Notes: a model not told the origin generated them from the sequence alone. A DNA stretch of 64,000 nt from Bdellovibrionales bacterium (GCA_965200025.1 OZ241325.1:1178743-1242742), one strand, 5' to 3'; shown: positions 4,898-24,343, numbered from the stretch's first letter. Program-made: numbers and translations.

Positions 4898-4993
4898 TAC
4901 TTATTGCCTAAAAATCATAAAATACCCACTGTAGGCAGGGGCATACAGACCCTAACTGCTCTCATCAAGCTCTTTAAAACCAGCCAGTCTCAG

Positions 4994-7197: not shown

Positions 7198-8052
7198 TTA
7201 TGGTAATGACCTGGCGGAACCTCCTGAACCATAAATCAATTCTTTAAAATTGGGGAGGTGTTTCAGCTCTTCATTATAGAGGCGGTGTACAGCAATCGGA
7301 GTGTTATATAATCCAAGCGTCTCCAGGCTAATCAAATCAGAGAAGAGACCGGGAGGAAAATAAGTTAACTTCCTCTGCCAGTTCAGCTCAATAACTCTCA
7401 AATTAGGCAGGCCGGAGAAGATACCCAAAGGCAGACTGTTTAAGACACCACCATGCAAATTAAGCTCTTCCAGGTTAGAAAGTCCGTTAAAGATATTTGC
7501 GGGCAGGTGAGTGCGTGAATACAAACCATTCATTTTAAGCTCCCGCAAGTTATGTAAGTTTGAGAAGATATTTTCAGGTAAGCCCTCAAGGTCATCATTA
7601 CCTTTAATAGAAAGAACCTCCAGAGCAACCAAATCAGAGAAGAGACCAGGAGGGAAATAAGTGAATTCATTGGAATCCAATTCTAAATTTTTCAAGTTAA
7701 ACAAGCCAGAGAAGATATCTGAAGGCAGGCTTTTTATTCCCTGAACACTCAAATTAAGTATCTCCAAAGAAAACAAGCCGGAAAAATCACCGGTTTTAAA
7801 TCCGACTCCGTATGTTTTTAATTCTGTTTCCCTATAAGCTTTGTAGAAATCCAAAACCTTTATGGCATTTAACTCCTCTTGAGTAACATCTTCACAATTT
7901 TTCTTTTCTGTTTTTTTAAGTATCTGCTCTTTAACAAAATCTGTTCTATAACAAACAGAGGTGATAACAAATTCCTCCTGGGCCAGTGCAGTAAGAGCAA
8001 AAGAAACAGTTAAAATTAAACATGTTGCTTGCATTATTATCTTTGTCTTCAT
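7198..8052 (-). CDS. Secreted leucine-rich repeat (LRR) protein
   Basis: 284 aa with a signal peptide. Tandem ~24-aa LxxLxLxxNxLxxLPxxIFSGL repeats. Confidence 0.85.
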   Translation of the reverse strand: MKTKIIMQATCLILTVSFALTALAQEEFVITSVCYRTDFVKEQILKKTEKKNCEDVTQEELNAIKVLDFYKAYRETELKTYGVGFKTGDFSGLFSLEILNLSVQGIKSLPSDIFSGLFNLKNLELDSNEFTYFPPGLFSDLVALEVLSIKGNDDLEGLPENIFSNLHNLRELKMNGLYSRTHLPANIFNGLSNLEELNLHGGVLNSLPLGIFSGLPNLRVIELNWQRKLTYFPPGLFSDLISLETLGLYNTPIAVHRLYNEELKHLPNFKELIYGSGGSARSLP

Positions 8053-8200: not shown

Positions 8201-8545
8201 TTAAAAGAGTGAGTATTGCGGGGTTTTGTCTTCTGCTGAAAGCAATGGGTTGTTGAGCTCCCTGTCCAGCTCTTTAAAATTGGGAACATGGATACTCATT
8301 AAAGCCTGAAAAAGCCTGCCGTGGTTGGGAACCTTAAGGTGCAAAAGCTCATGCACAATCACATAAATCTGAAGCTCTTTTCTTTTAAATAACAGGCTTT
8401 GGTTGAAGCCCACCACCCCGTCTGAGGTGCAGTACCCCCATTTTTTCATCTCCTCCACCCGCACATCACAGGGAAAAACCTTAAGCCTCCTGCACCATAC
8501 TTTAACTTCTTTTTTAAAGTCTGTTATTTTCTCATCTGGTTTCAT
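8201..8545 (-). CDS. YgjP/DUF45-like zinc metallopeptidase (short form)
   Basis: 114 aa with an HExxH motif in VIVHELLHLKVPNHGRLF. The start overlaps the hsdR stop (ATGA), which is the usual position of DUF45 genes after hsdR. Confidence 0.65.
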   Translation of the reverse strand: MKPDEKITDFKKEVKVWCRRLKVFPCDVRVEEMKKWGYCTSDGVVGFNQSLLFKRKELQIYVIVHELLHLKVPNHGRLFQALMSIHVPNFKELDRELNNPLLSAEDKTPQYSLF

Positions 8546-11500
8546 TTTTTTGTTGCCTCAACAGAAGTGATAATCTCTTCGGTGAGTTTTACAATTTTGT
8601 CTTCTGGTACGGTTTTCAGAAGAATTTGATAAAGGTCCATTTTGAGTTGGCGTTTTTCTTCTGAGCTGCTGTAAAAATGAGTAAATTTATCAAAACTTTC
8701 AGACATTTGTACGGCCAAATCTTCAAACTGCTTAAGTTTTTGCTTTTTAAGGGGCCAGGCGATGGTGGCCTCCTGAAGAGACAACGAGCTGTTTTGTGCA
8801 AGCTTTTCCGCTTCCCGGGCTTCATCCACAAGCTTTAGGGTGTGCTTAAGAGCTTCAGAGGAGCTTTGCTGGCTTTCTTCAAAATTCTGCATAATCTGAT
8901 CTGCTCTTTCAGAGATGGAAATCAAGTGGGGTTTTTCCCTACTGTGTTCCTCTGTTTCTTTTCTTATGGACTGTATAAGGTCTATCACTTTCTTACTGTC
9001 CAGGTCATTACTGCTCTTAACATGTTTTAAGGTGTGTTCATCAATGGAATAGATTTTCACAATACCTTTAAAAAACTTTAAGTGGGCTGTGTTTTGTATC
9101 AGTGCCTGTGTTTTTTTGGTGACTTCTGCAATAAAGTCTGTTTTTTTCCGGTAAGCTTTTTGAACAATCAGGTAAAGATCCACAATATGCTGATAGGGTT
9201 TTATGTAAGGTCTGAGTTCCGCATCGGGGGAAAGTATTTCATACAAAGCTTGCAGTTTTTGAAACTGATCGGAAAACCGTTGTCTTTTTTGCGGATCCCG
9301 CATTTTTTCATAAACAAATTGCTCCAAAAGTTTGTCATAAGTTTTCAGATGGAAAGTGAGATAGGGTTTTAAGTCTTTTGTTATCATGGATTTAAATTTT
9401 TGCATCATCACATTTAAGTCTTCGATCACCGCATTTACTTCACCGGAGTCAAAAGTGAGGGCTTTTTTCATGGATTTAAAAACTCCCACAAAATCCACAA
9501 TCAGGCCACAGGGTTTTTGTATGCCTTGTGCATCTTCATAAGGCCTGTTGACCCGGGCCATAGCCTGAAGCAACACATGGTCCCGCATGGGTTTATCCAT
9601 ATACATACAGTAAAGGAGGGGGGCATCGTAACCGGTGAGCAGTTTATCGGTCACAATCAAAATCTCAGGGTCACAGGCAGGTTTTTTAAAAAGTTTTCGG
9701 ACACTGTGTTCTTCTTCTGTGTTGATGTGATATTTTTTTAACAGTGCTGAGTCATTGTGACTTTTGGTATAAACCACTTGTGACGCTTCCGGGGCAAGGT
9801 GTTGGTCCAGTTCTTTTTTATAAAAGGCACAGGCTTCCCTGTCCACAGCCACCAAAAAAGCTTTGTAACCAAGGGGTTTTACATTTTCTTTAAAGTGATG
9901 GGCCACAAACCGGGATACAGCTTTTATACGATCAACTGATTTTAAAAAAGTTCTTAGATTCACAGACCGGGTTAAAATTTTGTTAAGTGTTTCTATATCA
10001 CTAATGCCTTCTGTATCTGTGATGTTAAAAAATTCTTTTTCCAAAAGCTGATCTTTCACTGTAAGTGTGTTGGGTGCCAGTGAGTATTTGATTTTTAATG
10101 TGGTGCCGTCCTCTATAGACTCGGCAATGGAGTATTTGTCCAAATAGCCTTCTTTGTCATATTTTCCAAAAACTTTAAAAGTGCCTTGTCCCTGGTTGGT
10201 TTTATCTATAGGGGTACCGGTGAAGCCAATCAGTGTGGCTTTTGGCAAGGCACCGGTGAGGTAATTGCCCAGGTCTCCTTCTACAGATCTGTGGGCTTCG
10301 TCCATAAAAACATAAAAATTATCTCTGGTACAGATGTTGGCTGGTATGTCTTTAAATTTATGTATCATGGATATAATCAGTCCTCTAAAATCACTTTTGA
10401 GAATGTGGAGCAGGTCTGTTTTGGAATAAGCTTTTTTAATGGCAATGGAGGTGTTTTTCATTTCTGTAATTATTCTTTCGATCCACTCGTAAAGCTGCCC
10501 TTCCAGCTCGTTTCGATCTACGATCATCAGTACTGTTGAATTTGCTTGCGATTGAAGGATAAGCCTTGCGGCTGTAATCATGGTAAAGGTTTTGCCAGAT
10601 CCTTGGGTGTGCCACACCAAGCCTCTGTTTTTGGAAGGGGTTTTGCATCTTTGGTTGATTTTTTCAACTGCTCTGGTTTGGTGTTGCCTGAGGATGGTTT
10701 TTTGAAGCTCCCCCTCTTTAAGGTAAAACAACACCCACTGGTTTATCATTTTAAGAAAGTGAGTTTTGTTAAAAAAACTCAAAACTGCCTGTTCAAAACT
10801 AAGGCTTTCGTTCCCCTGCACACTACCCTTCGCGTATACATCAGCACCTCCGCTAACACCGTCAATTTTATTAGTAGCACCGTCATTTCCGCTATTAGCA
10901 TCATCATTCCCGCTAACACCGTCATTTCTGTGTGCAGTGTCTTTTCCACCAGCACCTTCATTGCTGCTAATATCGTCATTCCCATGAAGCTTCTTACTAC
11001 TGTTAGCATTGTTATTTTTATGAAGCACGTCATTCCCGCGAAAGCGGGAATCCACTTTCCAGTTAAAAACATTTTTCCGTGTGTAATTCCATGTCACTCC
11101 ATAAAAATACTCAAAAGCATCGGTAATATTAAAAACTTGTGTGCAGGATAAAATTTCTGGGGTTTCACTTTCAAGTCTTTTAATCTGAGCAAGAGCTTGT
11201 TCCATGCTGTCTGTAACACCTGGTTTTTTGTTTTCCACAAGAGCCAGGGGAAGGCCATTGATGAGAAACATAACATCGGGCCGGTTGGTTTTATGGGGAT
11301 TTGTAAAAGTCCACTCTTCGGTGACCTGAAAAGTATTGTTTTCAGCATTTTCAAAATCAATCATTTTCACTTGGCAGTGGCGTTTTTCTTTCGCGTCAAA
11401 ATAAGTTTGATGGCCTTTAATCCAGTTTAAGTGAGCTTTGTTGCCTTCAATGGTATCTGGCAAACTGTTTATTTGACGCAACAACTCTTCCACATTGTTT

Positions 11501-11679
11501 GAGGTTAAAAAACCGGGATTCAATTTTATGAGAGAGAGTTTTAAGATGTCATAAAAAAACTTTCCAGTGGGGCCTTTTCTTAAAGCAAGAGCTTGTTGCG
11601 GGGGTACATACTCCCACCCGGCTTTCTCTGCATATTTGAGAAGTGGTTTTTGTACCACTTGTTTTTCCGTCAAACCCAT
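8542..11679 (-). CDS. hsdR: Type I restriction enzyme R subunit
   Basis: The ORF runs to 11727, but the likely start is the ATG at 11679 (MGLTEKQ). PD-(D/E)XK motif RPDVMFLINGLPLALVENKK. Helicase motif I TQGSGKTFT and motif II FMDEAHRS. Carries an in-frame G/N/D-rich insertion. Confidence 0.9.
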   Translation of the reverse strand: MGLTEKQVVQKPLLKYAEKAGWEYVPPQQALALRKGPTGKFFYDILKLSLIKLNPGFLTSNNVEELLRQINSLPDTIEGNKAHLNWIKGHQTYFDAKEKRHCQVKMIDFENAENNTFQVTEEWTFTNPHKTNRPDVMFLINGLPLALVENKKPGVTDSMEQALAQIKRLESETPEILSCTQVFNITDAFEYFYGVTWNYTRKNVFNWKVDSRFRGNDVLHKNNNANSSKKLHGNDDISSNEGAGGKDTAHRNDGVSGNDDANSGNDGATNKIDGVSGGADVYAKGSVQGNESLSFEQAVLSFFNKTHFLKMINQWVLFYLKEGELQKTILRQHQTRAVEKINQRCKTPSKNRGLVWHTQGSGKTFTMITAARLILQSQANSTVLMIVDRNELEGQLYEWIERIITEMKNTSIAIKKAYSKTDLLHILKSDFRGLIISMIHKFKDIPANICTRDNFYVFMDEAHRSVEGDLGNYLTGALPKATLIGFTGTPIDKTNQGQGTFKVFGKYDKEGYLDKYSIAESIEDGTTLKIKYSLAPNTLTVKDQLLEKEFFNITDTEGISDIETLNKILTRSVNLRTFLKSVDRIKAVSRFVAHHFKENVKPLGYKAFLVAVDREACAFYKKELDQHLAPEASQVVYTKSHNDSALLKKYHINTEEEHSVRKLFKKPACDPEILIVTDKLLTGYDAPLLYCMYMDKPMRDHVLLQAMARVNRPYEDAQGIQKPCGLIVDFVGVFKSMKKALTFDSGEVNAVIEDLNVMMQKFKSMITKDLKPYLTFHLKTYDKLLEQFVYEKMRDPQKRQRFSDQFQKLQALYEILSPDAELRPYIKPYQHIVDLYLIVQKAYRKKTDFIAEVTKKTQALIQNTAHLKFFKGIVKIYSIDEHTLKHVKSSNDLDSKKVIDLIQSIRKETEEHSREKPHLISISERADQIMQNFEESQQSSSEALKHTLKLVDEAREAEKLAQNSSLSLQEATIAWPLKKQKLKQFEDLAVQMSESFDKFTHFYSSSEEKRQLKMDLYQILLKTVPEDKIVKLTEEIITSVEATKK
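10806..11055. repeat. In-frame 18-21-bp minisatellite ending in a hairpin element, inside hsdR
   Basis: About 11 degenerate tandem units containing (C)ACCGTCATTCCC end in GTCATTCCCGC-GAAA-GCGGGAATCC (hairpin at 11032-11051). Translated in HsdR as FRGNDV..HGNDDIS..RNDGVSGNDDANSGNDGAT.. Confidence 0.8.
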
Positions 11680-11760
11680 CACCCACCTTATCCTTATTTC
11701 AGAATTATAAAACAACAACCTGCACACTATACTCTTAAACCACCCGATTTTATCAGCAAA

Positions 11761-11872
11761 TTATCAAACATCTACATTCCCACAAACACCATCATTCCCG
11801 TAAATCCCGTCACCCCAGCAAGCACCACCATTTTCACAAACACCGTCATTCCCGCGAAAGCGGGAATCCAGT
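11761..11872. repeat. 18-bp minisatellite plus hairpin element (intergenic and Fic 3' end)
   Basis: Five degenerate units CACCNTCATTCCCNNAAA end in GTCATTCCCGCGAAAGCGGGAATCCAG (hairpin at 11848-11867). Same orientation and structure as the array inside hsdR. Confidence 0.75.
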
Positions 11873-12691
11873 TAAATTAATTTTATTCTTTTTTGCATAA
11901 ATACCTTTTTCCAGCATAAAAATTATATTATCTGCAAATAGTTTTTCAAGGTGACTTATATCCCCCGCATCTGAAAACTGAACAGCTTTAATATACTCCT
12001 CCCGATGATTAAAAACCATAGGTAAAAAGTCCAGGCGAATTAAAATATAGTTCATTAAAAGTCTTATCACCCGGCCATTACCATCATCAAAAGGATGAAT
12101 AAGGATAAATCTTTTATGAAGTCCAGCCAAAAAAGAAACAAGACTTTTATGTTTATCTGCTTCTTTTTTTTTGAGCCAGTTTTGTATCCATTGGGTGAGG
12201 TTTGCCATAAAAGCAGGTGTTTCCTCTGGAGTGGCAAACCGAAAAAGTGTTCCCGTTTTTGTTAAAACATGGTTGGGGCTTGTTTTGTATTTACCGGGGA
12301 TAATTTTTTTTCTTGTTGGCTCGCCCTCAGAGGTTTGAGCTATTTTATAAAAAGGCTCTTTAAGGCAAATTTTGTTAAGGTCTCTTATATCCCCTTCGGT
12401 GATAAGCCGTTTATCTTTGGCTGTTTTGCGGATATATTCAAAGGCTACATCATGGGCTTTCATTTCTTCATACTCTCTGATTTCATGATCACCAGTGGTG
12501 CGGCCATGGATAAGCAGCAGCTGTGTTTCACTATAAGAGAGTGTATTGCCTTCAAAATTATTAGACAGATGATTAAAATTTATACGAATCCACTGCCACA
12601 AGGATTGATAATTTTCCGTTGGAAGGGGCTGACAAGCTCGCCAAGTTTTATAAAGCTCAAAAATCTTATTTACATTATTTATTTGCATCAT
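11846..12691 (-). CDS. Fic/DOC family protein
   Basis: 281 aa. Fic motif HPFDDGNGRVIRLL. N-terminal inhibitory-helix-like motif SNNFEG, matching (S/T)xxxE(G/N). The last 7 codons and the stop lie inside the hairpin element. Confidence 0.85.
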   Translation of the reverse strand: MMQINNVNKIFELYKTWRACQPLPTENYQSLWQWIRINFNHLSNNFEGNTLSYSETQLLLIHGRTTGDHEIREYEEMKAHDVAFEYIRKTAKDKRLITEGDIRDLNKICLKEPFYKIAQTSEGEPTRKKIIPGKYKTSPNHVLTKTGTLFRFATPEETPAFMANLTQWIQNWLKKKEADKHKSLVSFLAGLHKRFILIHPFDDGNGRVIRLLMNYILIRLDFLPMVFNHREEYIKAVQFSDAGDISHLEKLFADNIIFMLEKGIYAKKNKINLTGFPLSRE

Positions 12692-12734
12692 TCTTCCTTA
12701 TTGAATTTAAAATCTTTTTTTTAATTTGCTACTT

Positions 12735-14429
12735 TTATATTAAAATTTTATTTTTTATAAAATCTTTAAACTGATCCACATCTTCCTTTGTTAAATTACT
12801 CATCACTTTTTTACTTAAAAAATTCTTTAACTTATTTATAGATTCAGTATCTTTTTTGGAGTAACTATAGTCTCCATTTTTATTTTTTGATAGAATTCTT
12901 GAAAATAGCTCCATATTGAAAGCATCTTTTAAGAATCTTAAAGGATATAAACTCTCAATACCCTTTAAGTTTTTTGATCTATCATTTACTAAATTTTTTG
13001 GCCACTGAACAATTGATACACCATTAATATTATTGATCATATTCCATTTTTGATTGTCTACATCCCAATCTAATAAAATAATAATTCTTGTGTTATAGAT
13101 GCTGAATCGATCTTTAATTAAGTTTTTATTATTTTTTATATACCTCTGAATAGTATCCTTACCCCCAGAGTCTCTATCACCTTCTAGATCTGAAAGACAT
13201 GTGATATGAGTATTCAACTGATCTAAATCTAAAACAGTTACTATTCGTTTAAAAAAATTAACATCTGTTTTTCCTTCACATAAAACAATACTTTTTCTTG
13301 GAAAAAAAAGCAACGGATGGGTATAATGACTTATACCTAATTGGGTAGCTTTTCTATGTACATTTTCTGGAGCAACATCTTCACAATGAGTAGTATTATC
13401 TATCTTTTTAAGGAACACAGATTTTTGTGAATGATCTGCAAACATGGTTGAGTGGGTGGTACAGAAGATCTGTAATCGACTTATTTTTTCTGTTACCATT
13501 TTGAATAAAAAATGTGCTAAATGAGCCTCAAGATCAGAATGTAAGGAGGATTCAGGTTCTTCCACAGCCCATATAGTGGCTTGCTTCCATCCAAACTTTT
13601 GTGCATAGTCTTTGTCAATTAGATTCAACGTGTGAAACATTAAGAAACTCTGGATTCCTGATCCTTGATAAGTATCTTTTATTCTAATATTGTCAGTACT
13701 TATAAAATAACCAGAAGTTGAGATCAGATCCTCTATTAAAGATGGGGTAACCAACTCAACAGAATGATTACCTTTATACACTTGTTTAAAAGCATCAGAT
13801 ACAGGTTTAATTAATTCGTTTGCAGATTTTTTTATTGATTCTGATAAATTATTAGCAGCTCTTTTTATTTTTTTCTTGTCTTTTCTTTGTATATTGAATT
13901 TTCTTATAACAGCTTTTCTTATATTATTTGTTTCTTTTTTCATAATCTCTACAGGGAGTACTCTATTTGGAATATACCTGAAATTTATCAGTGCCAAGAA
14001 CCGTCCTATATGTTTGAAGTCATTATCTTTAACTGGTTTATCGTTAAGATTTATTTTATTATCATGGTTTTCTCTTCTAAATATTTTTCTTATTTTTATT
14101 TGTCCATTTTTACTATCTTTTAAAATAAAATTTCTAATATAGGTCATTCTTTTCTGAAATTTAAAATTTTCTGGTAAAACAAAGGTGACAGATATCCTAA
14201 TTTCTTGTCTTTTTTTGGTTTTTTTGGAAGATATATGAAAATCTGTATCAAAATCAAAGTCTGTTCCCTCATCAGTTTTATTATTAAAAAATAGATTTAA
14301 AGCTCTTAATATATTTGATTTTCCTGAATTGTTTAATCCATATAAAGAGTTAAAATCTTTTATATTAGAAATTTTACATTCTTTTATTGATCTAAAATTT
14401 TTTATTTCTACTTCAGTAATCAGTTTCAT
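12735..14429 (-). CDS. OLD-family / PARIS-like ABC-type ATPase fused to a TOPRIM (DUF4435-like) nuclease domain
   Basis: 564 aa. N-terminus EIKNFRSIK, Walker A GLNNSGKSN, Walker B region IWAVEEPESSLH. C-terminal TOPRIM pattern IVLCEGKTDVNFF..DSGGKD..IILLDWDVD. Visibly more AT-rich than the flanking hsd genes. Confidence 0.7.
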   Translation of the reverse strand: MKLITEVEIKNFRSIKECKISNIKDFNSLYGLNNSGKSNILRALNLFFNNKTDEGTDFDFDTDFHISSKKTKKRQEIRISVTFVLPENFKFQKRMTYIRNFILKDSKNGQIKIRKIFRRENHDNKINLNDKPVKDNDFKHIGRFLALINFRYIPNRVLPVEIMKKETNNIRKAVIRKFNIQRKDKKKIKRAANNLSESIKKSANELIKPVSDAFKQVYKGNHSVELVTPSLIEDLISTSGYFISTDNIRIKDTYQGSGIQSFLMFHTLNLIDKDYAQKFGWKQATIWAVEEPESSLHSDLEAHLAHFLFKMVTEKISRLQIFCTTHSTMFADHSQKSVFLKKIDNTTHCEDVAPENVHRKATQLGISHYTHPLLFFPRKSIVLCEGKTDVNFFKRIVTVLDLDQLNTHITCLSDLEGDRDSGGKDTIQRYIKNNKNLIKDRFSIYNTRIIILLDWDVDNQKWNMINNINGVSIVQWPKNLVNDRSKNLKGIESLYPLRFLKDAFNMELFSRILSKNKNGDYSYSKKDTESINKLKNFLSKKVMSNLTKEDVDQFKDFIKNKILI

Positions 14430-14503
14430 TTTTTATTCTCCTTATTTTTTATATATTTTGATCAGAAAAATGTATAAATTCATTTAAACCTTTATCATTC
14501 ATT

Positions 14504-15997
14504 TTATTGCTCCATCAACTTGGTATTAATTTTTAGATTATGAATGCGTGTTTGACCAGTCATAAGTTGGGTGAGAGTGGTTTTAAACAGGTCTTCCAAA
14601 GTGGATTTTTTATTCCTGTGGTTTGTGATTTTTTGATCTATTTTTTGAAAAATTAAAGCAATTCTTTCTTGCTCTCCCAGCGGTGGCACCGGGACTCTAA
14701 ACTGAAGTAATCTTTGACTAGATAAATTAGGAATGGTGGTTCGGTTCCCAAAAGTCCCATAGATATTTAAAATGCGAATAGCACAGTCCATCCAATACAT
14801 ATAAAACAACGGGATACTTGTGGCATTCTTTGCTCTAAGTCTATGAATATGGTTTTGATAATAACATTCTGAGAGCTCATTATTCCAAATAGCTGTACGA
14901 CCTATATCTCCACCTTCACAAACTAATAGGTCATTTTTTTTCAATGCAAGTGATTCTCTGTCTTTATTAGGAATATCCATTTTATCTACTTTTGATAAAT
15001 CTAAATAACCCCAAAATACATTGGCAGTTCTGAGAAATGGCTTTAAATATAACCCAGTTTGATTCTTTGCCGATAAAGACTTACCTTGTTTTAGGTAGAA
15101 TAAATCTTCAATACATTTTATATCCCAGTACGGAGGAAAGAAACCAATTGCAGTTTGCTTTGTGGTGAGTGGATTCCCGCTTTCACGGGAATGACGAGCC
15201 TTCTGAGGAGAACGACTTGCAGTACCTCTTATGCCGTAAGTGAAGAGGTACTTCATGGTGGATTTTTTGAGTTCCTGTGTAACCTTGATCAACCTGTTTT
15301 GAGCCTCTATGGCCTTTTGTATGCAGGATAAAACTCCTGCAATTTTCTTTTGCTCTCCCAACGGCGGCACCGGAACTCTTAAGCTTTTTAACTTTCCTTG
15401 ATTTATGGATGACTGATTTACCGCTCTTCCAGAAATTCTAATAAACAATTTTTTTTCTTTATAGAAATTAAAAGTATAGTTTAAAAAATACGGATTAAGA
15501 ACATTCAGATTAGTACGGAATAAAAGTAAATTCATCCCATGTAGTAAATATCTATAATTTTTATTAGATATACCTGTTTTACCAAGGTGAGGTTCACTGT
15601 TGATATGACTAAACAATATATCACCTTTTTTAATCAAATACTTTCTAAATTTATCTGTTGAAATATTTGACACAAAACGAGTTTTTTCAATATTCAAGTA
15701 CCCATCACTAATTGTTTCAATCCTGGTAATACGATACTCACCACTGAATCTATTTTGTTTATCTGTTAACCCATTTCCCATATGTAATAACAACTGTGGT
15801 TTTTTTTGACCAAGAGATGCTATGTTCCAATGTGAGGGAAAGGTGTCAATTTCGGTCTGCTTTGTAATTGAAGGCTGAAAATAGAGTGTGGATTCCCGCT
15901 TTTGTGGAAATGACAAACCTTGCGGAGTTGAGGGATACACATTCCTTAACCCAATTACTGGCCAAGTATTATTTATTTTTTTAACTTCTTTTTTCAC
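14504..15997 (-). CDS. hsdS: Type I restriction enzyme S (specificity) subunit
   Basis: 497 aa. Two target-recognition halves, each followed by a conserved helical region (VPPLGEQKKIAGVL.. and VPPLGEQERIALIF..). Confidence 0.9.
   Translation of the reverse strand: MKKEVKKINNTWPVIGLRNVYPSTPQGLSFPQKRESTLYFQPSITKQTEIDTFPSHWNIASLGQKKPQLLLHMGNGLTDKQNRFSGEYRITRIETISDGYLNIEKTRFVSNISTDKFRKYLIKKGDILFSHINSEPHLGKTGISNKNYRYLLHGMNLLLFRTNLNVLNPYFLNYTFNFYKEKKLFIRISGRAVNQSSINQGKLKSLRVPVPPLGEQKKIAGVLSCIQKAIEAQNRLIKVTQELKKSTMKYLFTYGIRGTASRSPQKARHSRESGNPLTTKQTAIGFFPPYWDIKCIEDLFYLKQGKSLSAKNQTGLYLKPFLRTANVFWGYLDLSKVDKMDIPNKDRESLALKKNDLLVCEGGDIGRTAIWNNELSECYYQNHIHRLRAKNATSIPLFYMYWMDCAIRILNIYGTFGNRTTIPNLSSQRLLQFRVPVPPLGEQERIALIFQKIDQKITNHRNKKSTLEDLFKTTLTQLMTGQTRIHNLKINTKLMEQ
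15170..15195. repeat. Hairpin element copy inside hsdS (before TRD2)
   Basis: GGATTCCCGCTTTCACGGGAATGACG, translated as HSRESGNP in HsdS. Confidence 0.75.
15889..15914. repeat. Degenerate hairpin element copy inside hsdS (before TRD1)
   Basis: TGGATTCCCGCTTTTGTGGAAATGAC, translated as PQKRESTL in HsdS. The right arm is decayed. Confidence 0.6.
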
Positions 15998-16029
15998 TGT
16001 TCAACCTTTTATTATACTGATTTTAAATT

Positions 16030-16395
16030 TTATTTTTTATCTTTCTTTTTTAAAGTGACAGGTTTGGATTTAACTTTTTTACTGCCTTTCAGTAAAACAA
16101 CATAGTTCTTTTTTATTTCCTTATGGAAACTTTTAGGTAACATAGTCCAATCTCTCGCCTCCATCAAAAAAGGAATGTTGGACTCTGTTAAATCCTCCTT
16201 TAATTCATAAAGTTTTACAAGATCAATTTTTTTTAATTTAGGAGTCCTTAGTACTAAATCCAAGTCGCTCCCAGAATGACTTTTACCACTTACCCGGCTG
16301 CCATAAGTCCATACATCCACTTCTGACAGATGCTTTTTAAAAAGTATCTCTAACTGCCTCCTGTGCTTGGACAATAAATGAATCTTTTTATTCAT
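16030..16395 (-). CDS. Minimal nucleotidyltransferase (MNT-like, Pol-beta superfamily)
   Basis: 121 aa with motif GSRVSGKSHSGSDLDLVL (GS..x..D-x-D). No adjacent HEPN partner is visible. Confidence 0.7.
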   Translation of the reverse strand: MNKKIHLLSKHRRQLEILFKKHLSEVDVWTYGSRVSGKSHSGSDLDLVLRTPKLKKIDLVKLYELKEDLTESNIPFLMEARDWTMLPKSFHKEIKKNYVVLLKGSKKVKSKPVTLKKKDKK

Positions 16396-16439
16396 TTTAA
16401 CCTCTTTTTTTGTTTTAGTTTTCCGGGCTTATCATATTT

Positions 16440-18476
16440 TTATGACCTCCAACACCCTGTTAGGATATTTGATAGGGTAGTGATAAATGTCAAAACTGGG
16501 AGATATTTCTTTATAAATAAAGATAAATGATTTTTGTTTTTTTCTTTTTGAATCTTATCAAAACCTTTTGGGGTAATTTGAACACTTACTGCTATTAAAG
16601 AGGGATGAGGTAAACTTGAAGATGATCGAGGGTTTTTGTTAGAAAGTTGAATTAATTCTTCCTTTTCCAAATAATCAAATAACAAAAACCTAAATTCTTT
16701 CCAATTATGACAATAAGATAAAGCCCATAAAAATGGAGCTGGATTATTTCTCATGTAATCTCCTAAATCCTTAACCTGACTAAAAAATAAATCAACCCAT
16801 TCTCCTTCTTTAGAATATAAAGTTACCAAACCCTTTAATAGTAAAAGAGCTCTTCTTTCTGTATCTTTTTGTGTCTTCTTCATCTTTGTTTGATTTTCCA
16901 TTATCTTATCTAAAGAAGGAATATGTCCTTTTAGATTCTCCTGAGCAATGTAGCCAGATAAGTAAATTTTTTCCTCTTTACTAAGACGAAGCGTATTAGT
17001 ATCATCTTCAGTAAGTGGAAACATAGCAGTATCATTATTTGAGGTTTCTATACCTCCAGTTTTACATAACCCTTCTGATAATTTATAATATCCACCTGCC
17101 CACGGATTGTATATTATGTATTCTGGTAGAATGGAATTATTATTATCATTATAATATATACAAGGATGATAGTGTCCATCTGTAATTTGCTTTTTAAGAG
17201 TTTTTAACCCTGAGTAATGTTTATTTGACCAAGGAGGCATAAAGTCTCTTCCTGTTGGTTCGTCCTTCTGAGAAGGATAACTTAAATTTGGATCTAAAAA
17301 ATCCCCCCATATTACACATCTGTTTGGTGTACTCATTTTATTACCTATCCTCTCTTGTTTTTTAAAAATTACATTGTAAAACATACTATTATTACCATAC
17401 TTAATATCCAATGTGACTTTATTTTTATGATTTTTAATAGCTTGCTTTATGCGGTTAATACCTGTACCAGCTTTTTCTATATAATTTGCCCTGTGGAGCA
17501 TGGAGGCAATTAAAAAATTACGGGGTACACTTTTTGTGCCGAATGTTTTTTTATCCAAGCCACTGGGTAATCCCCCCGGGTTATAAATCTCCACCCTGTC
17601 CGAAAATACATCCACAACAACATGGCCTCTTTTTTCAAAATAATCTCTGTGACAAACAGCGTTGACAATAGCCTCCCGTAAAGCTACTTCTGGGTAATCA
17701 GGGATTTCCTCCCGGCGGGGGTTACCTGTAATCACATACTCTGTATTTGTGTGTCTTTGAACAAAAGCCAAAGCATTGTTAATATTTTCAATAATATTCC
17801 CCTTATATTGCTTTCTATCCAAGACTTTGACCTTATCTGTACCTTTAAATAAAATACAATCCACAAGGGCATGATTCATAATAAAATCCAGATCTTTGGC
17901 AAAAAACAAAACACCTAAATTAGTAAGCTTGTTATTATCTGCCAAACAGTCCAGGTTTTTAAGAAGAGCCTCCTGTGCAATAGATTGACTGATACCTGAA
18001 AGTTTTAAAAAATTTTTAAAAGCCTGTGGATCAAAATCTTTTTCAAAATCAGATTTTTCATTAATTAGCTCTTCAAAATGAACCCGGCCCTCTTTTTTAA
18101 AGCATTGTATAACCTCGTCTCTGGTCATTTTTTGAGAATTAGCCCCCACCCTCATAAAAAAACCTTTGGGACACTCATAAGGTTTTTCCTTACCTTCAGG
18201 CACATGGATTGCAATCAAATTTTCTTTAACCTCAACTGATATATCCAGTTTGGGTTGCAGTGTATTTAATATATCCTGTACTCTGGAACGGAAACGATTG
18301 CTTGTATCAATGCCTTTTATTGTGTTATCATCAGCCACTCCCATTAAAATGTCACCACCAGAAGAGTTGGCAAAAGCACATGCCTCTTCAACAAGGGTTG
18401 AATTTAGAGATTCTTTAAACTCTATATGGTATCCCTCACCAGTTAAAATCAGATTTTTAATTTCTTGATCTTTCAT
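16440..18476 (-). CDS. AlbA_2 (Schlafen-like) + HATPase_c_4 protein fused to an unknown ~260-aa C-terminal domain (domain X)
   Basis: 678 aa. AlbA_2 pattern EGYHIEFKESL..CAFANSSGGDILMGV. HATPase_c_4 pattern ALREAIVNAVCHRDY..VEIYNPGGLP. From about aa 380 (MSTPNRCVIWG...) it is homologous to the N-terminal 240 aa of the 368-aa protein at 18890-19996. Confidence 0.75.
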   Translation of the reverse strand: MKDQEIKNLILTGEGYHIEFKESLNSTLVEEACAFANSSGGDILMGVADDNTIKGIDTSNRFRSRVQDILNTLQPKLDISVEVKENLIAIHVPEGKEKPYECPKGFFMRVGANSQKMTRDEVIQCFKKEGRVHFEELINEKSDFEKDFDPQAFKNFLKLSGISQSIAQEALLKNLDCLADNNKLTNLGVLFFAKDLDFIMNHALVDCILFKGTDKVKVLDRKQYKGNIIENINNALAFVQRHTNTEYVITGNPRREEIPDYPEVALREAIVNAVCHRDYFEKRGHVVVDVFSDRVEIYNPGGLPSGLDKKTFGTKSVPRNFLIASMLHRANYIEKAGTGINRIKQAIKNHKNKVTLDIKYGNNSMFYNVIFKKQERIGNKMSTPNRCVIWGDFLDPNLSYPSQKDEPTGRDFMPPWSNKHYSGLKTLKKQITDGHYHPCIYYNDNNNSILPEYIIYNPWAGGYYKLSEGLCKTGGIETSNNDTAMFPLTEDDTNTLRLSKEEKIYLSGYIAQENLKGHIPSLDKIMENQTKMKKTQKDTERRALLLLKGLVTLYSKEGEWVDLFFSQVKDLGDYMRNNPAPFLWALSYCHNWKEFRFLLFDYLEKEELIQLSNKNPRSSSSLPHPSLIAVSVQITPKGFDKIQKEKNKNHLSLFIKKYLPVLTFITTLSNILTGCWRS

Positions 18477-18589
18477 TGGAATATCCTTATTTTAAGATGT
18501 TTACAATTTTGTGTCCGTCCATAAGGTTTTATGAATGCCTTAATACAACGACTTAAACACTCAGCTTTGATATTACTTTTATTTTTCAT
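18473..18589 (-). CDS. Possible 38-aa micro-ORF translationally coupled to the 678-aa gene
   Basis: Translation MKNKSNIKAECLSRCIKAFIKPYGRTQNCKHLKIRIFQ*. Its TGA overlaps the ATG of the 678-aa gene (ATGA). No strong SD, and it is below the ORF-track cutoff. Confidence 0.2.
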   Translation of the reverse strand: MKNKSNIKAECLSRCIKAFIKPYGRTQNCKHLKIRIFQ

Positions 18590-18621
18590 TTTTTTATTCC
18601 TTTAAAACCACCATATAACAG

Positions 18622-18873
18622 TTAGTAGGACGATCTGCAAATACATAGTACTTTTTCCACCTGTCCCTTTATTTTTTGTTTTCCTTCTGATGTAAAAGGT
18701 ACATCCAAGTGCTTTCCCTCATAAGAATGCCTGCCACCACTGTTGAGTATAACCTCTGTAACAGTCAAATTATCTGGATCCACATCGTCCCAGCCGTCCT
18801 CATATCCACTAACCACCACTTTCATGGTATCTGGATATTTCTTTAGCATATTTTTAAGTTCTTTAACAATCAT
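18622..18873 (-). CDS. Hypothetical 83-aa protein
   Basis: ORF in operon orientation between the two domain-X genes, 16 nt after the stop of the 368-aa gene. No family recognised. Confidence 0.4.
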   Translation of the reverse strand: MIVKELKNMLKKYPDTMKVVVSGYEDGWDDVDPDNLTVTEVILNSGGRHSYEGKHLDVPFTSEGKQKIKGQVEKVLCICRSSY

Positions 18874-18889
18874 AGCATATATCCTTTCT

Positions 18890-19996
18890 TTATTGTATGG
18901 TACCTTTAATTTTATCCTTCAATTTTTTTATAAAATCTTCCATATTATTTTTTTCCCAAAAAATAATGGGATACTGGCGAATGTCAAAAGCCATTTCTTT
19001 TTCTAGTGCTTTATTACAGGTAAAAATAACATCTCTGCCTATTCCTTTGGCATAACCGGCTTCAAAATAAACACTGCCACGGGGCTTCCCAGATTCTGAA
19101 GTAAGATCGCAGATGATAAATCGGGATTCTTTAATTTCAGAAAGAATCTCATCACAAATTTTATTGTTATGAGATTTATCATCAATTCTTAAAGGCTTGT
19201 ATCCAGCTTCTTTTATTGCTTTTTGGATACTTGTCTTTACAGTATCTACTGAAGAATCAATCCACATGGCAATAAAAGCCTGTTGTGAGTTTTGATTAGG
19301 TGTCCTATTTTGTATATTTTTAATTTTTCTCAAACCTTTTGGAGTAATTCTAATATGTACTTCTTTTATAGGTTGTAGTGGATGTATAGGTGGAAGATCT
19401 ATTGGTTCAGAAGCGTTAATAAATTCTTTTTGCTTTAAATCAAATAACAAAAAATCAAATTCGGTTACATTACAACAATAAGATACAGCCCATAAAAATG
19501 GAGCTGTAAATACACCTCTATAACCCCCTACACTTCGATCCTGAATAATACATGAGGGTATCTCCTCTCCGAGGCCAGGTTCCAAAACCTTTAAACTTTT
19601 TAATAACATAAAAGCTCGCTCTTCTTCATCTGGAATATCAGGTAAATTGCTCAGCCAATCATCGCCTTTCATTATTGCATCAATAGAAGGTGTTTTATTG
19701 TTTAAATTTTCCTGAGCAACGTAGCCAGACAAGCGGATTCTTTCCTCCTCTGAAATACTAAACCTTCCACCTCCTACAAAAGAAAATGTTTTGCGTGAGA
19801 GAGTGTACTTTCCACCTGCCCATGGATTATATATTATGTAGTTACCAAATAACGGACGATTCTGATAAATAAACGGACGTTGGTGTATCAGATCTTTTAT
19901 ACCTTGATTCGGATGAAAGCGAGTATCCTCATTAGCAAGTTCTATCGCATTAGTAAGTGCTGTTCCCCATATCACGCATTTGTTTTGTGTACTCAT
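18890..19996 (-). CDS. Domain X fused to a TIR-like / nucleoside 2-deoxyribosyltransferase-like domain
   Basis: 368 aa. N-terminal 240 aa are homologous to the C-terminus of the 678-aa protein. The C-terminus AFIAMWID..RFIICDLTSESGKPRGSVYFEAGYAKGIGRDVIF fits an NDT/TIR-like Rossmann pattern with a conserved Glu. It starts 5 nt after the hsdM stop. Confidence 0.6.
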   Translation of the reverse strand: MSTQNKCVIWGTALTNAIELANEDTRFHPNQGIKDLIHQRPFIYQNRPLFGNYIIYNPWAGGKYTLSRKTFSFVGGGRFSISEEERIRLSGYVAQENLNNKTPSIDAIMKGDDWLSNLPDIPDEEERAFMLLKSLKVLEPGLGEEIPSCIIQDRSVGGYRGVFTAPFLWAVSYCCNVTEFDFLLFDLKQKEFINASEPIDLPPIHPLQPIKEVHIRITPKGLRKIKNIQNRTPNQNSQQAFIAMWIDSSVDTVKTSIQKAIKEAGYKPLRIDDKSHNNKICDEILSEIKESRFIICDLTSESGKPRGSVYFEAGYAKGIGRDVIFTCNKALEKEMAFDIRQYPIIFWEKNNMEDFIKKLKDKIKGTIQ

Positions 19997-20001
19997 TAGT
20001 A

Positions 20002-22014
20002 TTACCTCATTTTACTTTTAAATTTTCTTTTGTGTTGAATGTTATGATTTTTTGGATTGTCGCTTTCGCGGGAATGGTGGTGCTTGCGGGAAGGGTTTGC
20101 TCCCCGGGAAAGGCCAGGGATGAGTTGCTTCATTATACGGTTCAGTTCTTTATCGGTTTGTTGCTCCTGTTTTTGCACCTTGGCCAGCTCAGACAGGATT
20201 TCAGGAATGGGGCGATAAACCACATCCTCCGAAAGACTGATGTAACGGGAGGGGGACAGATTATAATCGTTTTGCCTTGCCTCCTCCCTTGTAATCACCT
20301 TCACAAAACGCTTTACATTTTTGCCAGTCAAAAAAGCTTTCACAATTTTACCAATACTCTCTTCTGAAATATGGTTTTTGGGCTTTCCCTTGTAAAACTC
20401 CTGACTGGCATTGAGCAAAATAATTTGCCCCTTTCTTTCCGCCACTTTGTTTTTGTTCAAAAAAACAATCAGCCCCGCAGCCGTGGTGTTATAAAAAAGA
20501 TTATCCGGCAGGAGAATAATCCCCTCAATCACATCCTGCTCCAAAAACCATTTTCGGATTTTTTTCTCTTTGTCCTCATGCGTGCTACCGCTGCCTCTGG
20601 TAACCGCCCCTGTGTCCAACACCACCGCAGCCCTTCCGCTGTCCTTCAAACAAGCCAGGGTGTGTTGCAACCAGGCCCAGTCTGCCTTGCCCGTTGTAAT
20701 ACCACCCTGGGATTCAAAACGATTAAAAGGATCGTTTTCATAAACCGAAGAAGAAAAAACCTGATTCCACATGGGATTGGCCACAATGATGTCAAACTTT
20801 TTAAGCCTGCCAGCCCTGCTTCTGAATTTGGGGTTTTCCATCGAGTTTCCCCGCTCCACCCTTCCCTCCATATCGTGAATAATCCTGTTCATACAGGCAA
20901 TGGCAAAACTTTCCGCATTAAGCTCCTGGCCATTTAACTGAAGAGGTTTTTTGTTCAAAGGATCCATCTGCTTTAACACCAGCTGAAGTTTAATCAACAA
21001 ACCAAAAGACCCGCAAGCGTAATCGTAAGCCGTCTCACCCCCCTGGGGCTGCATAATGTGAGCCATAATAAAACCCACTTCACGAGGGGTAAAAAACTCC
21101 CCGGAACTTTGCCCCTGCCCCTCTGCAAACTTCCTCAAAAGATACTCATAAGACCTACCCAAAAAATCCGGTTCCACATCGTTTAAACCCAAACGGTAGC
21201 GGGAGTCTGAAAAAGTCTCAATTAAAGCCCTGAGTTTGTCATCTTTGATTTCTCTTTCCCCGCCGCTGGTTTGGTTATAGTCCACAGTGTCAATCACCCC
21301 GCTCAAATTTGTGTCGGGATTGGCCTTGGCAATAGAACGCATGGTGAGGGTGAGCTGTTCTCCCAAAGACCGGGGTTTTTCGCCCAAAGGCCACTCCTGC
21401 CGGCCACTCACCACTGCCCACCGGGCCTCAGGGGGCAGGTAAAACCGCACCAAGGAACGATCCCGCTCCAGCATGTTAAGAGCCACTTTCCGGTTCCCAA
21501 ACTTCTTCACCAGCCTGGCTATCTCATCGTCAAACACATCAGAAAGCCGCTTGATGAACAACAAAGGCAAAATGTAGTCCTTAAACTTGGGGGCATCTTT
21601 TTCGCCCCGGATTTGACAGGCTGCCCGCCAAAGCATCTGCTCCATATCACTGTGGGCCAAAACCCCCTTCTTCCCCTGCCGGCTGCTGTAAGGGATTTTA
21701 GATCTTTTTTTGGAAGTTTTTGGAAAGCCTGCCGGCTGCCCACCAGCCCCAGCTTTTTGGGCCTTCTCGTAAAGCTCCTCAATCGCCTCTCTGACAGCTT
21801 TTTGGGGAAGAGAATGGCCGTTTTCCCACCGGTTAACTGTGGCAAACGACACCCCCAGCTTGTGAGCCAGCTCTGCCTGAGACAGCAGCAGTTTTTGCCG
21901 TATCTTTAACAGTTTAAATGAGAGTTCACTGGACAAATTAATCTCCTGAATGGCATAATTCTCTTTAATAAAATGATGCAAAACACCATTACTGAGGCAT
22001 TTTACCCAAATCAC
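20002..22014 (-). CDS. hsdM: Type I R-M N6-adenine DNA methyltransferase M subunit with an N-terminal XRE-type HTH
   Basis: 670-aa ORF starting at GTG 22014. A TTG at 21936 preceded by GGAG is an alternative start. HTH LSQAELAHKLGVSFATVNRWENG. HsdM_N helix MLWRAACQIRGEKDAPKFKDYILPLLFIKRLSDVF. Catalytic motif IV IIVANPMW. The C-terminal tail comes from the hairpin element. Confidence 0.9.
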   Translation of the reverse strand: MIWVKCLSNGVLHHFIKENYAIQEINLSSELSFKLLKIRQKLLLSQAELAHKLGVSFATVNRWENGHSLPQKAVREAIEELYEKAQKAGAGGQPAGFPKTSKKRSKIPYSSRQGKKGVLAHSDMEQMLWRAACQIRGEKDAPKFKDYILPLLFIKRLSDVFDDEIARLVKKFGNRKVALNMLERDRSLVRFYLPPEARWAVVSGRQEWPLGEKPRSLGEQLTLTMRSIAKANPDTNLSGVIDTVDYNQTSGGEREIKDDKLRALIETFSDSRYRLGLNDVEPDFLGRSYEYLLRKFAEGQGQSSGEFFTPREVGFIMAHIMQPQGGETAYDYACGSFGLLIKLQLVLKQMDPLNKKPLQLNGQELNAESFAIACMNRIIHDMEGRVERGNSMENPKFRSRAGRLKKFDIIVANPMWNQVFSSSVYENDPFNRFESQGGITTGKADWAWLQHTLACLKDSGRAAVVLDTGAVTRGSGSTHEDKEKKIRKWFLEQDVIEGIILLPDNLFYNTTAAGLIVFLNKNKVAERKGQIILLNASQEFYKGKPKNHISEESIGKIVKAFLTGKNVKRFVKVITREEARQNDYNLSPSRYISLSEDVVYRPIPEILSELAKVQKQEQQTDKELNRIMKQLIPGLSRGANPSRKHHHSRESDNPKNHNIQHKRKFKSKMR
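20053..20078. repeat. Degenerate hairpin element copy in the hsdM 3' end
   Basis: TGGATTGTCGCTTTCGCGGGAATGGT, translated as HSRESDNP in the HsdM tail. Confidence 0.6.
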
Positions 22015-22295: not shown

Positions 22296-22700
22296 ATGCC
22301 AGTACAAGTGAGCTTCATCAACATTTGGGAAGGACAAAATAAAATTATTAAAGCTGCTCAGCTTGGTACTCGGTGTCCAGCTAAAGATTTTATAGATAAA
22401 TTGGAAGAAAAAGAACAAAAAAAATTATATGTATTATTTGACAAGTTTGATATGCAAAACGGGAGGGTTTGTAACACGCAAAAATTAAGAAAACTGCATA
22501 CTTCCTGTGAAGGATGCTTTGAATTAAAACCAACTGCACAAGATCGTATAAGCTTTATTTACTTAAAGTATCCACCAAATTGTATTTGCTTATTGGATGG
22601 ATTTAAAAAGAAACAAAAAAAATGGCCACAGAATAAAATAAAAAAAACCATAAGGTTATGCAAAGAAGTTCAACAATATAAACAAGGAGTTACACAATGA
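22296..22700 (+). CDS. HigB/Gp49-like RelE-fold toxin
   Basis: 134 aa. The C-terminal half CFELKPTAQDRISFIYLKYPPNCICLLDGFKKKQKKWPQNKIKK is typical of phage Gp49/HigB toxins. ATGA overlap with the next gene. Confidence 0.65.
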   Translation: MPVQVSFINIWEGQNKIIKAAQLGTRCPAKDFIDKLEEKEQKKLYVLFDKFDMQNGRVCNTQKLRKLHTSCEGCFELKPTAQDRISFIYLKYPPNCICLLDGFKKKQKKWPQNKIKKTIRLCKEVQQYKQGVTQ

Positions 22701-23164: not shown

Positions 23165-23175
23165 GAGTTATTAAG

Positions 23176-24342: not shown

Positions 24343-24343
24343 T

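Follow-up and report, generated by a model that had tools for sequence, protein, structure and literature searches.

We analysed a 64,000-nucleotide (nt) stretch of DNA from a Bdellovibrionales bacterium (the window), an organism known only as a metagenome assembly, in which genes of defence type are interleaved with the hsd genes of a predicted Type I restriction-modification (RM) operon. Open reading frames (ORFs) were called on the window, and Pfam, PADLOC and NCBIfam were run on it. Eleven uninterrupted ORFs, all on the minus strand, span positions 8201-22014, and the ORF table reproduced the coordinates and gaps that an earlier note on this DNA had given for eleven same-strand ORFs. From hsdM to DUF45 the gaps are 5, 16 and 32 nt, a 4-nt overlap, 44, 32, 74, 43 and 118 nt, and a second 4-nt overlap; the 118 nt between Fic and hsdR are counted to the longest hsdR ORF and become 166 nt at ATG 11679. 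Starting from hsdM, the genes and domains are as follows (aa, amino acids).

20002..21936, minus: hsdM, methyltransferase subunit with an N-terminal XRE-type helix-turn-helix (HTH); longest ORF 20002-22014, to GTG 22014
18890..19996, minus: X-NDT, 368 aa; N-terminal domain X (aa 1-~232) and C-terminal NDT/TIR-like domain
18622..18873, minus: 83-aa ORF (orf83), function unassigned; sits where relatives encode HEPN
18473..18589, minus: 38-aa micro-ORF, probably spurious
16440..18476, minus: AlbA_2 (Schlafen-like), HATPase_c_4 and X2, 678 aa
16440-17336, minus: X2, second copy of domain X, aa 381-678 of the preceding protein, from Met381
16030..16395, minus: MNT (MntA-like antitoxin domain), 121 aa, a separate ORF
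14504..15997, minus: hsdS, specificity subunit with two target recognition domains (TRDs) and two in-frame E elements (palindromes described below)
12735..14429, minus: OLD-family ABC ATPase and Toprim nuclease, a single 564-aa polypeptide
11846..12691, minus: Fic AMP-transferase with a canonical active site; last codons and stop within an E element
8542..11679, minus: hsdR, restriction/translocase subunit; longest ORF 8542-11727, to GTG 11727
8201..8545, minus: YgjP/DUF45-type zincin, C-terminal half only, with HELLH; overlaps the hsdR stop by 4 nt

Judged from its predicted products, the operon encodes a Type I RM system that looks intact and belongs to a distinct family, characterized by an HTH-bearing HsdM and a short DUF45 gene 3' of hsdR. 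HsdM matched N6_Mtase (1.3e-83), HsdM_N (8.5e-24) and HTH_3 (2e-10) in Pfam and MTase_I in PADLOC (2.7e-155). Methylase_S matched HsdS in two stretches (1.9e-37), giving the two TRDs, and a conserved region is repeated inside the gene (14649-14701 and 15330-15382). HsdR combines a PD-(D/E)xK nuclease with a superfamily 2 translocase: it scored 459.7 bits against NCBIfam TIGR00348, over the cut-off of 284.55, matched HSDR_N, SWI2_SNF2, ResIII and a T1R_D3-like domain in Pfam, and contains the motifs PD...ENK, GSGKT, DEAH and QAMARVNR. Read from the translations, the catalytic motifs are intact in HsdR, HsdM, OLD, Fic, MNT and DUF45. The most likely start of hsdM is TTG 21936, because AGGAG lies 6 nt upstream and orthologues (71-78% aa identity) begin there, at the equivalent of aa 27; for hsdR it is most likely ATG 11679. 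The DUF45 protein matched YgjP-like (6.7e-24) at profile positions 115-206 of 207. It has 114 aa and, since orthologues of 112-115 aa follow hsdR in two relatives (L003 and L015, below), its shortness is not a truncation.

Two intervals lie between the hsd genes, and both are occupied. The first (slot 1, hsdM to hsdS) holds X-NDT, the 83-aa unknown, AlbA_2-HATPase-X and an orphan MNT, and the second (slot 2, hsdS to hsdR) holds the OLD-type ATPase-Toprim nuclease and the Fic AMP-transferase. The Pfam and PADLOC calls bear out the claim of the earlier note that hsdM-hsdS-hsdR is interrupted twice by defence or abortive-infection-type genes, and its domain calls were reproduced with Pfam, PADLOC and NCBIfam, that of X-NDT being weak by sequence and confident by model; the three cargo blocks that it counted are contradicted by the number of intervals, which is two. 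The cargo genes are embedded genes by definition, that is, non-core genes nested among core genes in the same orientation. They are also more AT-rich, as had been noticed. GC content at third codon positions (GC3) is 0.20-0.36 in the cargo and hsdS (X-NDT 0.24, X2 0.21, OLD 0.20, AlbA 0.30, Fic 0.31, hsdS 0.30, MNT 0.34), compared with 0.55 in hsdM, 0.52 in DUF45, 0.40 in hsdR and 0.42±0.08 in the 33 other ORFs of the window.

Slot contents in related loci

Using HsdM as a query against one genome per species, we found orthologues with 71-72% identity in three complete chromosomes (1.8-2.3 Mb) of metagenome-assembled genomes (MAGs) named Bdellovibrionales bacterium, and with 58-65% identity in MAGs of Usitatibacteraceae, Hyphomicrobium, Burkholderiales and Verrucomicrobia. 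Across phyla (L003, L004, L001, L015, L007, L009) the HsdM family keeps the XRE-type HTH, the NPMW motif and motif I, DYACGSFG. Divergent from hsdM in the window lie a Gp49/HigB-like gene, an HTH_26 gene and a 168-aa gene (22296-23682), AT-rich with GC3 of 0.24-0.28. Because the HigB-like, HTH and 168-aa genes are conserved beside hsdM, the Bdellovibrionales relatives carry the operon at the same chromosomal locus. The gene orders, in which a double colon marks a fusion and wHTH a winged HTH, are listed below.

Window: hsdM, X-NDT, orf83, AlbA-HATPase-X, MNT, hsdS, OLD, Fic, hsdR, DUF45
L015: hsdM, X-NDT (frameshifted), HEPN, AlbA (split)-HATPase-X, MNT::hsdS, OLD, Fic, hsdR, DUF45
L001 = L005: hsdM, X-NDT, HEPN, MNT::hsdS, OLD, AAA_15 + DUF4276, AAA_14, hsdR
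L016: hsdM, X-NDT, HEPN, MNT::hsdS, 619-aa unknown, RhuM-Fic, hsdR
L003: hsdM, HEPN, MNT::hsdS, 427-aa unknown, AlbA-HATPase-wHTH, hsdR, DUF45
L004: hsdM, AlbA-HATPase-wHTH, 82 aa, HEPN, MNT::hsdS, Dam-type methylase, AAA_15-DUF4435, ...
L002 (same locus, hsdM and hsdR gone): X-NDT, AlbA_2, orf83 homologue, hsdS remnant, SMC-like, Fic, DruA, NurA, HerA-like
L009 (Verrucomicrobia): a single ORF6N gene in the hsdM-hsdS interval (L009 10082-10756)
L007 (Usitatibacteraceae): a single Bro-N gene in the hsdS-hsdR interval (L007 13089-13946)

L015 is the closest relative: its operon and that of the window are collinear throughout (72-89% nt identity), apart from HEPN, which L015 alone has, orf83, which takes that position in the window alone, and one TRD. 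Since L015 has the same gene order, the interleaving was inherited and not assembled in this genome. The skeleton hsdM, X-NDT, HEPN, MNT::hsdS, ATPase-Toprim or another gene, hsdR is common to L015, L001/L005 and L016, with Fic before hsdR in L015 and L016; the contents of the slots differ in L003, L004, L002 and L012, and the orthologues from other phyla have no gene or one small gene per slot. Read from these gene orders, the two intervals are slots whose contents turn over. Within hsdS, TRD2 of the window (14558-15188) shares 73% aa and 85% nt identity with TRD1 of L015 (11992-12630), and a TRD has therefore changed position. We also considered a phase-variable shufflon and rejected it: there is a single hsdS, without silent hsdS copies and without a recombinase gene in the operon or its immediate neighbours.

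The contrast in composition is shared by L015 (OLD GC3 0.18 against 0.55 for hsdM), and in lower-GC relatives the operon is homogeneous, with GC3 of 0.2-0.3 throughout. These values fit cargo alleles that circulate among AT-richer relatives, or a slower amelioration of the cargo, and do not prove recent acquisition. The earlier suggestion of separate acquisition stands in that the blocks are accessory and vary among close relatives, and has to be revised in that the arrangement did not arise here; the comparison with orthologous loci that had been proposed revealed an interleaving that is old in the lineage, yet neither universal nor compositionally homogeneous.

On this evidence the locus is probably no recent local insertion but an embedded defence island, organized in slots and inherited in the lineage, whose host is a Type I RM operon that looks intact. 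The operon would serve as a scaffold whose two slots host stand-alone defence or abortive-infection genes. Its layout would have been inherited within a lineage of small-genome 'Bdellovibrionales' MAGs and reshaped by decay, by the exchange of domains and by the replacement of genes slot by slot, in the course of which the HEPN toxin would have been lost, the MNT::HsdS fusion split, the AlbA winged helix replaced by a copy of X, and a TRD shifted from one position to the other. If the parts work as in published systems, HsdMSR would restrict unmethylated DNA as the first line, and the embedded genes would act independently as second-line effectors once restriction is evaded or inhibited, X-NDT being a putative nucleotide/NAD-glycosidase-type effector.

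Signals for transcription were examined along the same strand. A TTGACT/extended -10-like pair lies about 80 nt 5' of the hsdM start, and DUF45 is followed by a weak hairpin, AU-rich and with a U-run. The RNA folds of the Fic-hsdR spacer and of the region after DUF45 were no better than those of shuffled sequences (z = 0.21 and 0.34), and no Rfam family matched anywhere in the window. It is plausible that the genes from hsdM to Fic are cotranscribed, and an additional promoter may serve hsdR-DUF45; the cargo would then probably be co-expressed from the hsdM promoter, and hsdR-DUF45 possibly also from an internal one. Alternatively, hsdM-to-hsdS, OLD-Fic and hsdR-DUF45 could be independent units that merely share an orientation, as in EcoKI, where hsdMS and hsdR have separate promoters. 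A near-consensus sigma-70-like match (11/12) at 11949-11922, about 240 nt 5' of hsdR and within the 3' part of Fic, points in this direction, as do the largest gaps, 145 nt before the AlbA gene and about 166 nt before hsdR, the latter with a stable hairpin. However, no terminator-like site was found on the coding strand in any intergenic gap of the operon, and in relatives such as L016 adjacent genes overlap or are 1-5 nt apart, a spacing that speaks for co-transcription and coupled translation. Promoter-like matches are, moreover, in modest excess over the shuffled expectation in this AT-rich DNA (72 against 54.5±8.2). We regard separate units as somewhat unlikely.

The embedded genes

MNT was recognized by NTP_transf_2 (1e-6) and Polbeta (2e-6) in Pfam and by a weak MntA match in NCBIfam, and contains the motif GS...DLDL. 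In the window a stop codon and a change of frame part it from hsdS. In all five of the distinct relatives examined (L001, L003, L004, L015, L016) MNT is fused to HsdS and a HEPN (HepT-like) gene lies 5' of the fusion, so MNT is not the independent cargo gene that the first description had made of it. In PADLOC, an N-terminal MNT is included in the Type I specificity profile PDLC03138. A tblastn search with three HEPN proteins from relatives found no HEPN remnant in the window, which therefore has no HEPN-MNT pair. In the literature on R-M-linked HEPN proteins and on embedding we found no discussion of a core, shared across a lineage, in which HEPN precedes MNT::HsdS.

The 83-aa ORF had no match in Pfam, PADLOC, NCBIfam, PHROGs or PDB; a homologue, 46% identical, adjoins the AlbA_2 gene in L002. 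The 38-aa micro-ORF, counted earlier as a possible gene, had no tblastn match in any related locus and is unsupported.

The 678-aa protein matched AlbA_2 (3.5e-20) and HATPase_c_4 (7e-17). Its residues 1-374 are 76% identical to the AlbA_2-HATPase_c_4-wHTH protein of L004, and the winged-helix C-terminus of such relatives (HTH_24 in L003 and L004) is replaced in the window by X2. The protein thus has the AlbA_2 and HATPase_c_4 domains of the COG2865-type architecture, with X2 in the place of the wHTH. X2 is paralogous to the X of X-NDT, with DNA similarity of 70-89% in patches that begins exactly at the X-NDT ATG, and a Shine-Dalgarno-like GAGAGGA precedes the start of this similarity. Because L015 has the same HATPase-X fusion (P0122), the fusion is not an assembly artefact.

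X-NDT, the gene next to hsdM, had 158 homologues. By sequence its assignment is weak: Pfam NDT matched at 0.0022 (18.6 bits, below the 28.8-bit cut-off), the PADLOC TIR effector profile matched at 3.6e-7, and its profile matched nothing among PDB sequences. An AF2 model built from a 60-sequence alignment (pLDDT 88) was then compared by Foldseek, and the C-terminal ~140 residues matched NDTs, SARM1 TIR, SPARTA TIR, DNPH1 and BcmB with a probability of 1.0 and E of about 2e-4, which places this domain, as modelled, in the NDT/TIR-like superfamily. E312, in VYFEAGYA, is nearly invariant. An exact-protein look-up gave no identical record for the X-NDT of the window or for P0046 and P0014.

No Pfam family covers domain X. 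Modelled alone (pLDDT 83), it matched no fold in PDB or BFVD at E<0.04; the weak winged-helix-like matches fall in its C-terminal half, and we assign it no fold. A profile search of 1.84 billion representatives found domain X in 311 clusters. In the proteins sampled, X is fused to NDT-like, CAP12/Pycsar-TIR or TIR_2 domains, and in one sampled member it follows an Asp/Asn-tRNA synthetase. On unrelated contigs, an Asp/Asn-type class II tRNA synthetase gene directly precedes X or X-NDT or is fused to it (P0229, P0077 and L013 6046-8975). The architecture of X-NDT, a sensor with a nucleotide-degrading effector, suggests an abortive-infection effector. Neither domain X nor its two fusions, to NDT and to AlbA_2-HATPase, was found described in the literature on embedded defence genes.

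These proteins allow a different reading of the locus, in which the cargo is a physically integrated guard. HsdM2S1 would hold the cargo inactive and phage anti-restriction proteins would release it, as in PrrC/EcoprrI; the ancestral core would be a HEPN toxin with its MNT antitoxin fused to HsdS, and X-X contacts would couple an AlbA_2-HATPase sensor to an NDT effector. The covalent MNT::HsdS fusion with HEPN immediately 5', the inclusion of MNT in PDLC03138 and the presence of X on both X-NDT and the AlbA protein all agree with such a guard, and a PrrC analogy has been proposed for R-M-linked HEPN proteins (PMC3710099). So does gene order: in the window and L015, X-NDT both immediately follows hsdM and has an AlbA_2 gene at most two genes away; L001, L012 and L016 share the first of these placements, and L002 and L014 the second. 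Nevertheless, X-NDT is also found away from any hsd gene, in L013 and L014, and the core guard is not operative in the window because HEPN is absent and MNT is split from HsdS. We think a guard of this kind unlikely as the explanation of the locus, and prefer the slot-based island of independently acting genes.

In slot 2, the OLD-like gene directly follows hsdS in the window, as it does in L015 (61%) and L001 (58%). Its product matched AAA_15 (1.3e-25) and, at aa 380-479, DUF3226 (8e-5) in Pfam; AriA (4e-29, ATPase part only), Old (4e-22, aa 3-419) and many GajA profiles in PADLOC; and, weakly, a retron-Eco8 OLD profile in NCBIfam. It contains the Walker A motif GLNNSGKSN and the Toprim motifs CEGKTD and DWDVD. 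Architecture and motifs fit OLD class 1, with a PADLOC Old match that is partial, covering aa 3-419 of 564. The OLD half of the earlier OLD/PARIS-like label was retained. PARIS was rejected, as ATPase and Toprim form one polypeptide, the Toprim part matches DUF3226 and not DUF4276, and the operon has no DUF4276 (AriB) gene. Gabija was also rejected: the neighbours are hsdS and Fic, without an adjacent UvrD-like GajB helicase.

The Fic protein (Pfam 6.6e-16; PADLOC PDC-S04, an embedded candidate, 5e-27, the best match, and SoFic, 7e-20) is 84% identical to that of L015 and 72% to that of L002. Its active site, HPFDDGNGRVIR at aa 199, follows HxFx(D/E)GNGRxxR, and SNNFEG at aa 43 follows the N-terminal (S/T)xxxE(G/N), the combination of an auto-inhibited Fic protein; from the position of the inhibitory motif we take it to be of class II. 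According to PHROGs, the NDT-like, AlbA-HATPase, OLD-like and Fic proteins all have phage-encoded relatives, which is common for defence genes.

Palindromic elements and the surrounding DNA

The earlier note had marked a repeat array between Fic and hsdR. The array is real, and consists of a palindrome followed by degenerate ~18-nt units. This element, which we call E, has the form GATTCCCGC-N4-GCGGGAATGAC and occurs at five places in the window.

11765..11870, no strand assigned: the Fic-hsdR array, E element GATTCCCGCTTTCGCGGGAATGAC, then degenerate ~18-nt units GGGAATGAYGGTG...
about 10819-11055, minus: HsdR insertion, in frame, ~79 aa, G/N/D-rich and of low complexity, between the nuclease and motor domains, from E and tail repeats
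15163..15199, plus: E element in hsdS, lying between central conserved region and TRD2, translated ...ARHSRESGNPLT...
15879..15914, plus: degenerate E at the hsdS 5' end, the former MNT-HsdS linker, translated ...LSFPQKRESTL...
20053..20096, plus: degenerate E at the hsdM 3' end, encoding most of the last ~30 HsdM residues

All five copies in the 64 kb lie within the 13.8-kb operon, and the pattern ATTCCC-N8-GGGAAT was found three times in the window against 0 expected. In the spacer, E provides the stop codon of Fic; the array hairpin appears in the centroid RNA fold, where the local E hairpin alone stands out. In hsdM, similarity among orthologues ends just before E, at aa 635-638 of 670. 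The alignment showed the HsdR insertion in the window, L015 and L001, and its absence from L003 and L007; the HsdRs that share it are only 55-71% identical in the insertion region, and in L001 the stem of E is kept by a compensatory change, GATTCTCGC...GCGAGAATGAC. E copies lie at homologous positions of the operon in L015, L001 and L004, all of which carry E in the MNT::HsdS linker, and E is also intergenic elsewhere in related genomes, with L002 among the carriers. The L003 and L016 loci have no E element. Copies of E flank the TRDs and, in parallel with a proposal made for NIME arrays, we hypothesize that E elements could be recombination anchors. In-frame palindromic elements at module borders were not found described in the literature on embedded defence genes or on NIME arrays.

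Several of these observations, together with the promoter-like site 5' of hsdR, weigh against the slot-based island. HsdM scored 196.7 bits against NCBIfam hsdM, under the cut-off of 242.75, and has NPMW, a variant conserved across phyla, in place of NPPF/Y/W. The absent HEPN, the detached MNT and an X2 without an effector domain look like decay, not design, and the same is true of the repeat-derived, REP-like (repetitive extragenic palindromic) insertions inside hsdR, hsdS and hsdM. Among relatives, X-NDT is frameshifted and the AlbA gene split in L015, and L002, without hsdM and hsdR, keeps just an hsdS remnant. Read differently, the locus would be a relic: in a small genome (~1.9 Mb, probably host-associated) it would be eroding, partly or wholly non-functional despite its open ORFs, and the 'super-operon' would capture one moment in a course of gene loss, gene fusion and invasion by repeats; the surrounding 30 kb, rich in insertion sequence (IS) elements, Rpn-like genes and toxin-antitoxin (TA) fragments, is in keeping with this. 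Yet no window ORF is interrupted, the catalytic motifs named above are intact, and the insertion in HsdR is in frame and interdomain in three genomes whose HsdRs have diverged around it. We therefore consider a relic quite unlikely and retain the inherited, slot-based island.

A more ambitious synthesis would join three parts into one modular 'defence chassis' for this hsd family, an X adaptor, a HEPN/MNT::HsdS guard and palindrome anchors. X would be a shared adaptor or sensor that links AlbA_2-HATPase to an NDT/TIR effector, making a new two-component abortive-infection system; the ancestral HEPN would be wired to the restriction complex through MNT::HsdS as a built-in anti-restriction guard; and the dRS3-like palindromes, tolerated as in-frame linkers, would let cargo and TRDs swap between genomes. 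That all three hold jointly seems to us improbable.

The first ~30 kb of the window are accessory DNA, and housekeeping genes begin near 30 kb. Beyond the operon, the window contains the following.

31-1071 and 3850-4901: Rpn/YhgA-like (Transposase_31) paralogues, 89.5% nt identity
5159-6412: STAND-type NTPase
7198-8052 and 27499-28647: two leucine-rich-repeat proteins, the first with a hydrophobic, signal-peptide-like N-terminus
23716-25336: split HipA-like kinase pair (Couple_hipA and HTH, then HipA_C)
25660-27492: second Fic-domain protein, 610 aa
46973-48417 and 60633-62077: direct IS3-family copies (HTH_Tnp_1 and rve ORFs), 1445 bp, 99.9% identical, bracketing ~12 kb

A leucine-rich-repeat protein with a predicted signal-peptide-like N-terminus suggests a host-associated lifestyle.

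Comparison with known systems

The neisserial dRS3 is the 20-bp inverted repeat ATTCCC-N8-GGGAAT that flanks RS units of 50-150 bp (PMC1797815). E resembles dRS3/NIME repeats, REP elements and the palindromic elements of Rickettsia in that it fits this 20-bp pattern, its copies adjoin variable genes, its stems are kept by compensatory changes and copies are translated in frame in proteins. It differs in that its host is not Neisseria, its tails are degenerate ~18-20-nt units and no recombinase is linked to it. Rickettsia palindromic elements inserted in ORFs are a precedent for the in-frame copies of E.

Each of the cargo proteins also has known counterparts. X-NDT shares the fold of its C-terminal ~140 residues and the acidic residue with TIR/NDT effectors (SPARTA TIR-APAZ, SARM1, CAP12/Pycsar TIR, DNPH1/Rcl, BcmB), but its N-terminal domain X has no known relative; bona fide CAP12-TIR and TIR_2 copies occur on other X-domain proteins. 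MNT has the fold and the GS...DxD motif of HepT/MntA modules, and in the relatives HEPN is directly upstream; unlike those modules, the window has no HEPN, and the MNT of the relatives is fused to the HsdS N-terminus. The OLD-like protein resembles P2 Old class 1, GajA and AriA in its N-terminal ABC ATPase with Walker A and its C-terminal Toprim domain with a conserved Glu and DxD. It differs from Gabija and PARIS in that no GajB or separate DUF4276 AriB is nearby and the AriA profile covers the ATPase part only; an additional pair, AAA_15 and DUF4276, is present in L001. ABC ATPase-Toprim and Fic/Doc proteins beside R-M components are a recurring theme.

Type I RM, BREX and DISARM often hold embedded genes, of which 17,432 non-redundant examples in 3,568 cassette combinations have been reported, and nearly all PrrC genes are found inside Type I RM systems (Payne et al., bioRxiv 10.1101/2024.01.29.577857). 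TgvAB, embedded in the Type I RM system of V. cholerae VPI-2, was active by itself in experiments (10.1101/2024.04.04.588119). Links to R-M have been described for at least 16 HEPN clades and for Doc/Fic toxins, and a PrrC-type logic has been proposed for them (Anantharaman et al., PMC3710099). The HEPN gene and MNT::HsdS fusion of the relatives provide concrete evidence, read from their sequences, for a physical coupling that would make a TA-restriction complex. The locus offers candidate defence genes, of which X-NDT is the most interesting, the others being AlbA_2-HATPase-X, the 83-aa ORF and the ~430-620-aa unknowns in the same slot of relatives, and the related loci, at least seven in number, form a natural series for reading the order of gain, loss, fusion and replacement. 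The predicted combination of X-NDT, AlbA_2-HATPase-X, orphan MNT, OLD and Fic was not found described among embedded systems. The window shares with the guilt-by-embedding loci, TgvAB, PrrC/EcoprrI and the rlo genes of Campylobacter jejuni the placement of accessory defence genes between hsd genes on the same strand, and its Fic and MNT match the PADLOC candidates 'PDC-S04' and 'PDC-S09'. Embedding of defence genes in Type I RM is thus already published and common, and the window is a crowded further example: the characterized cases hold one or two genes, whereas this operon holds five cargo genes in two slots.

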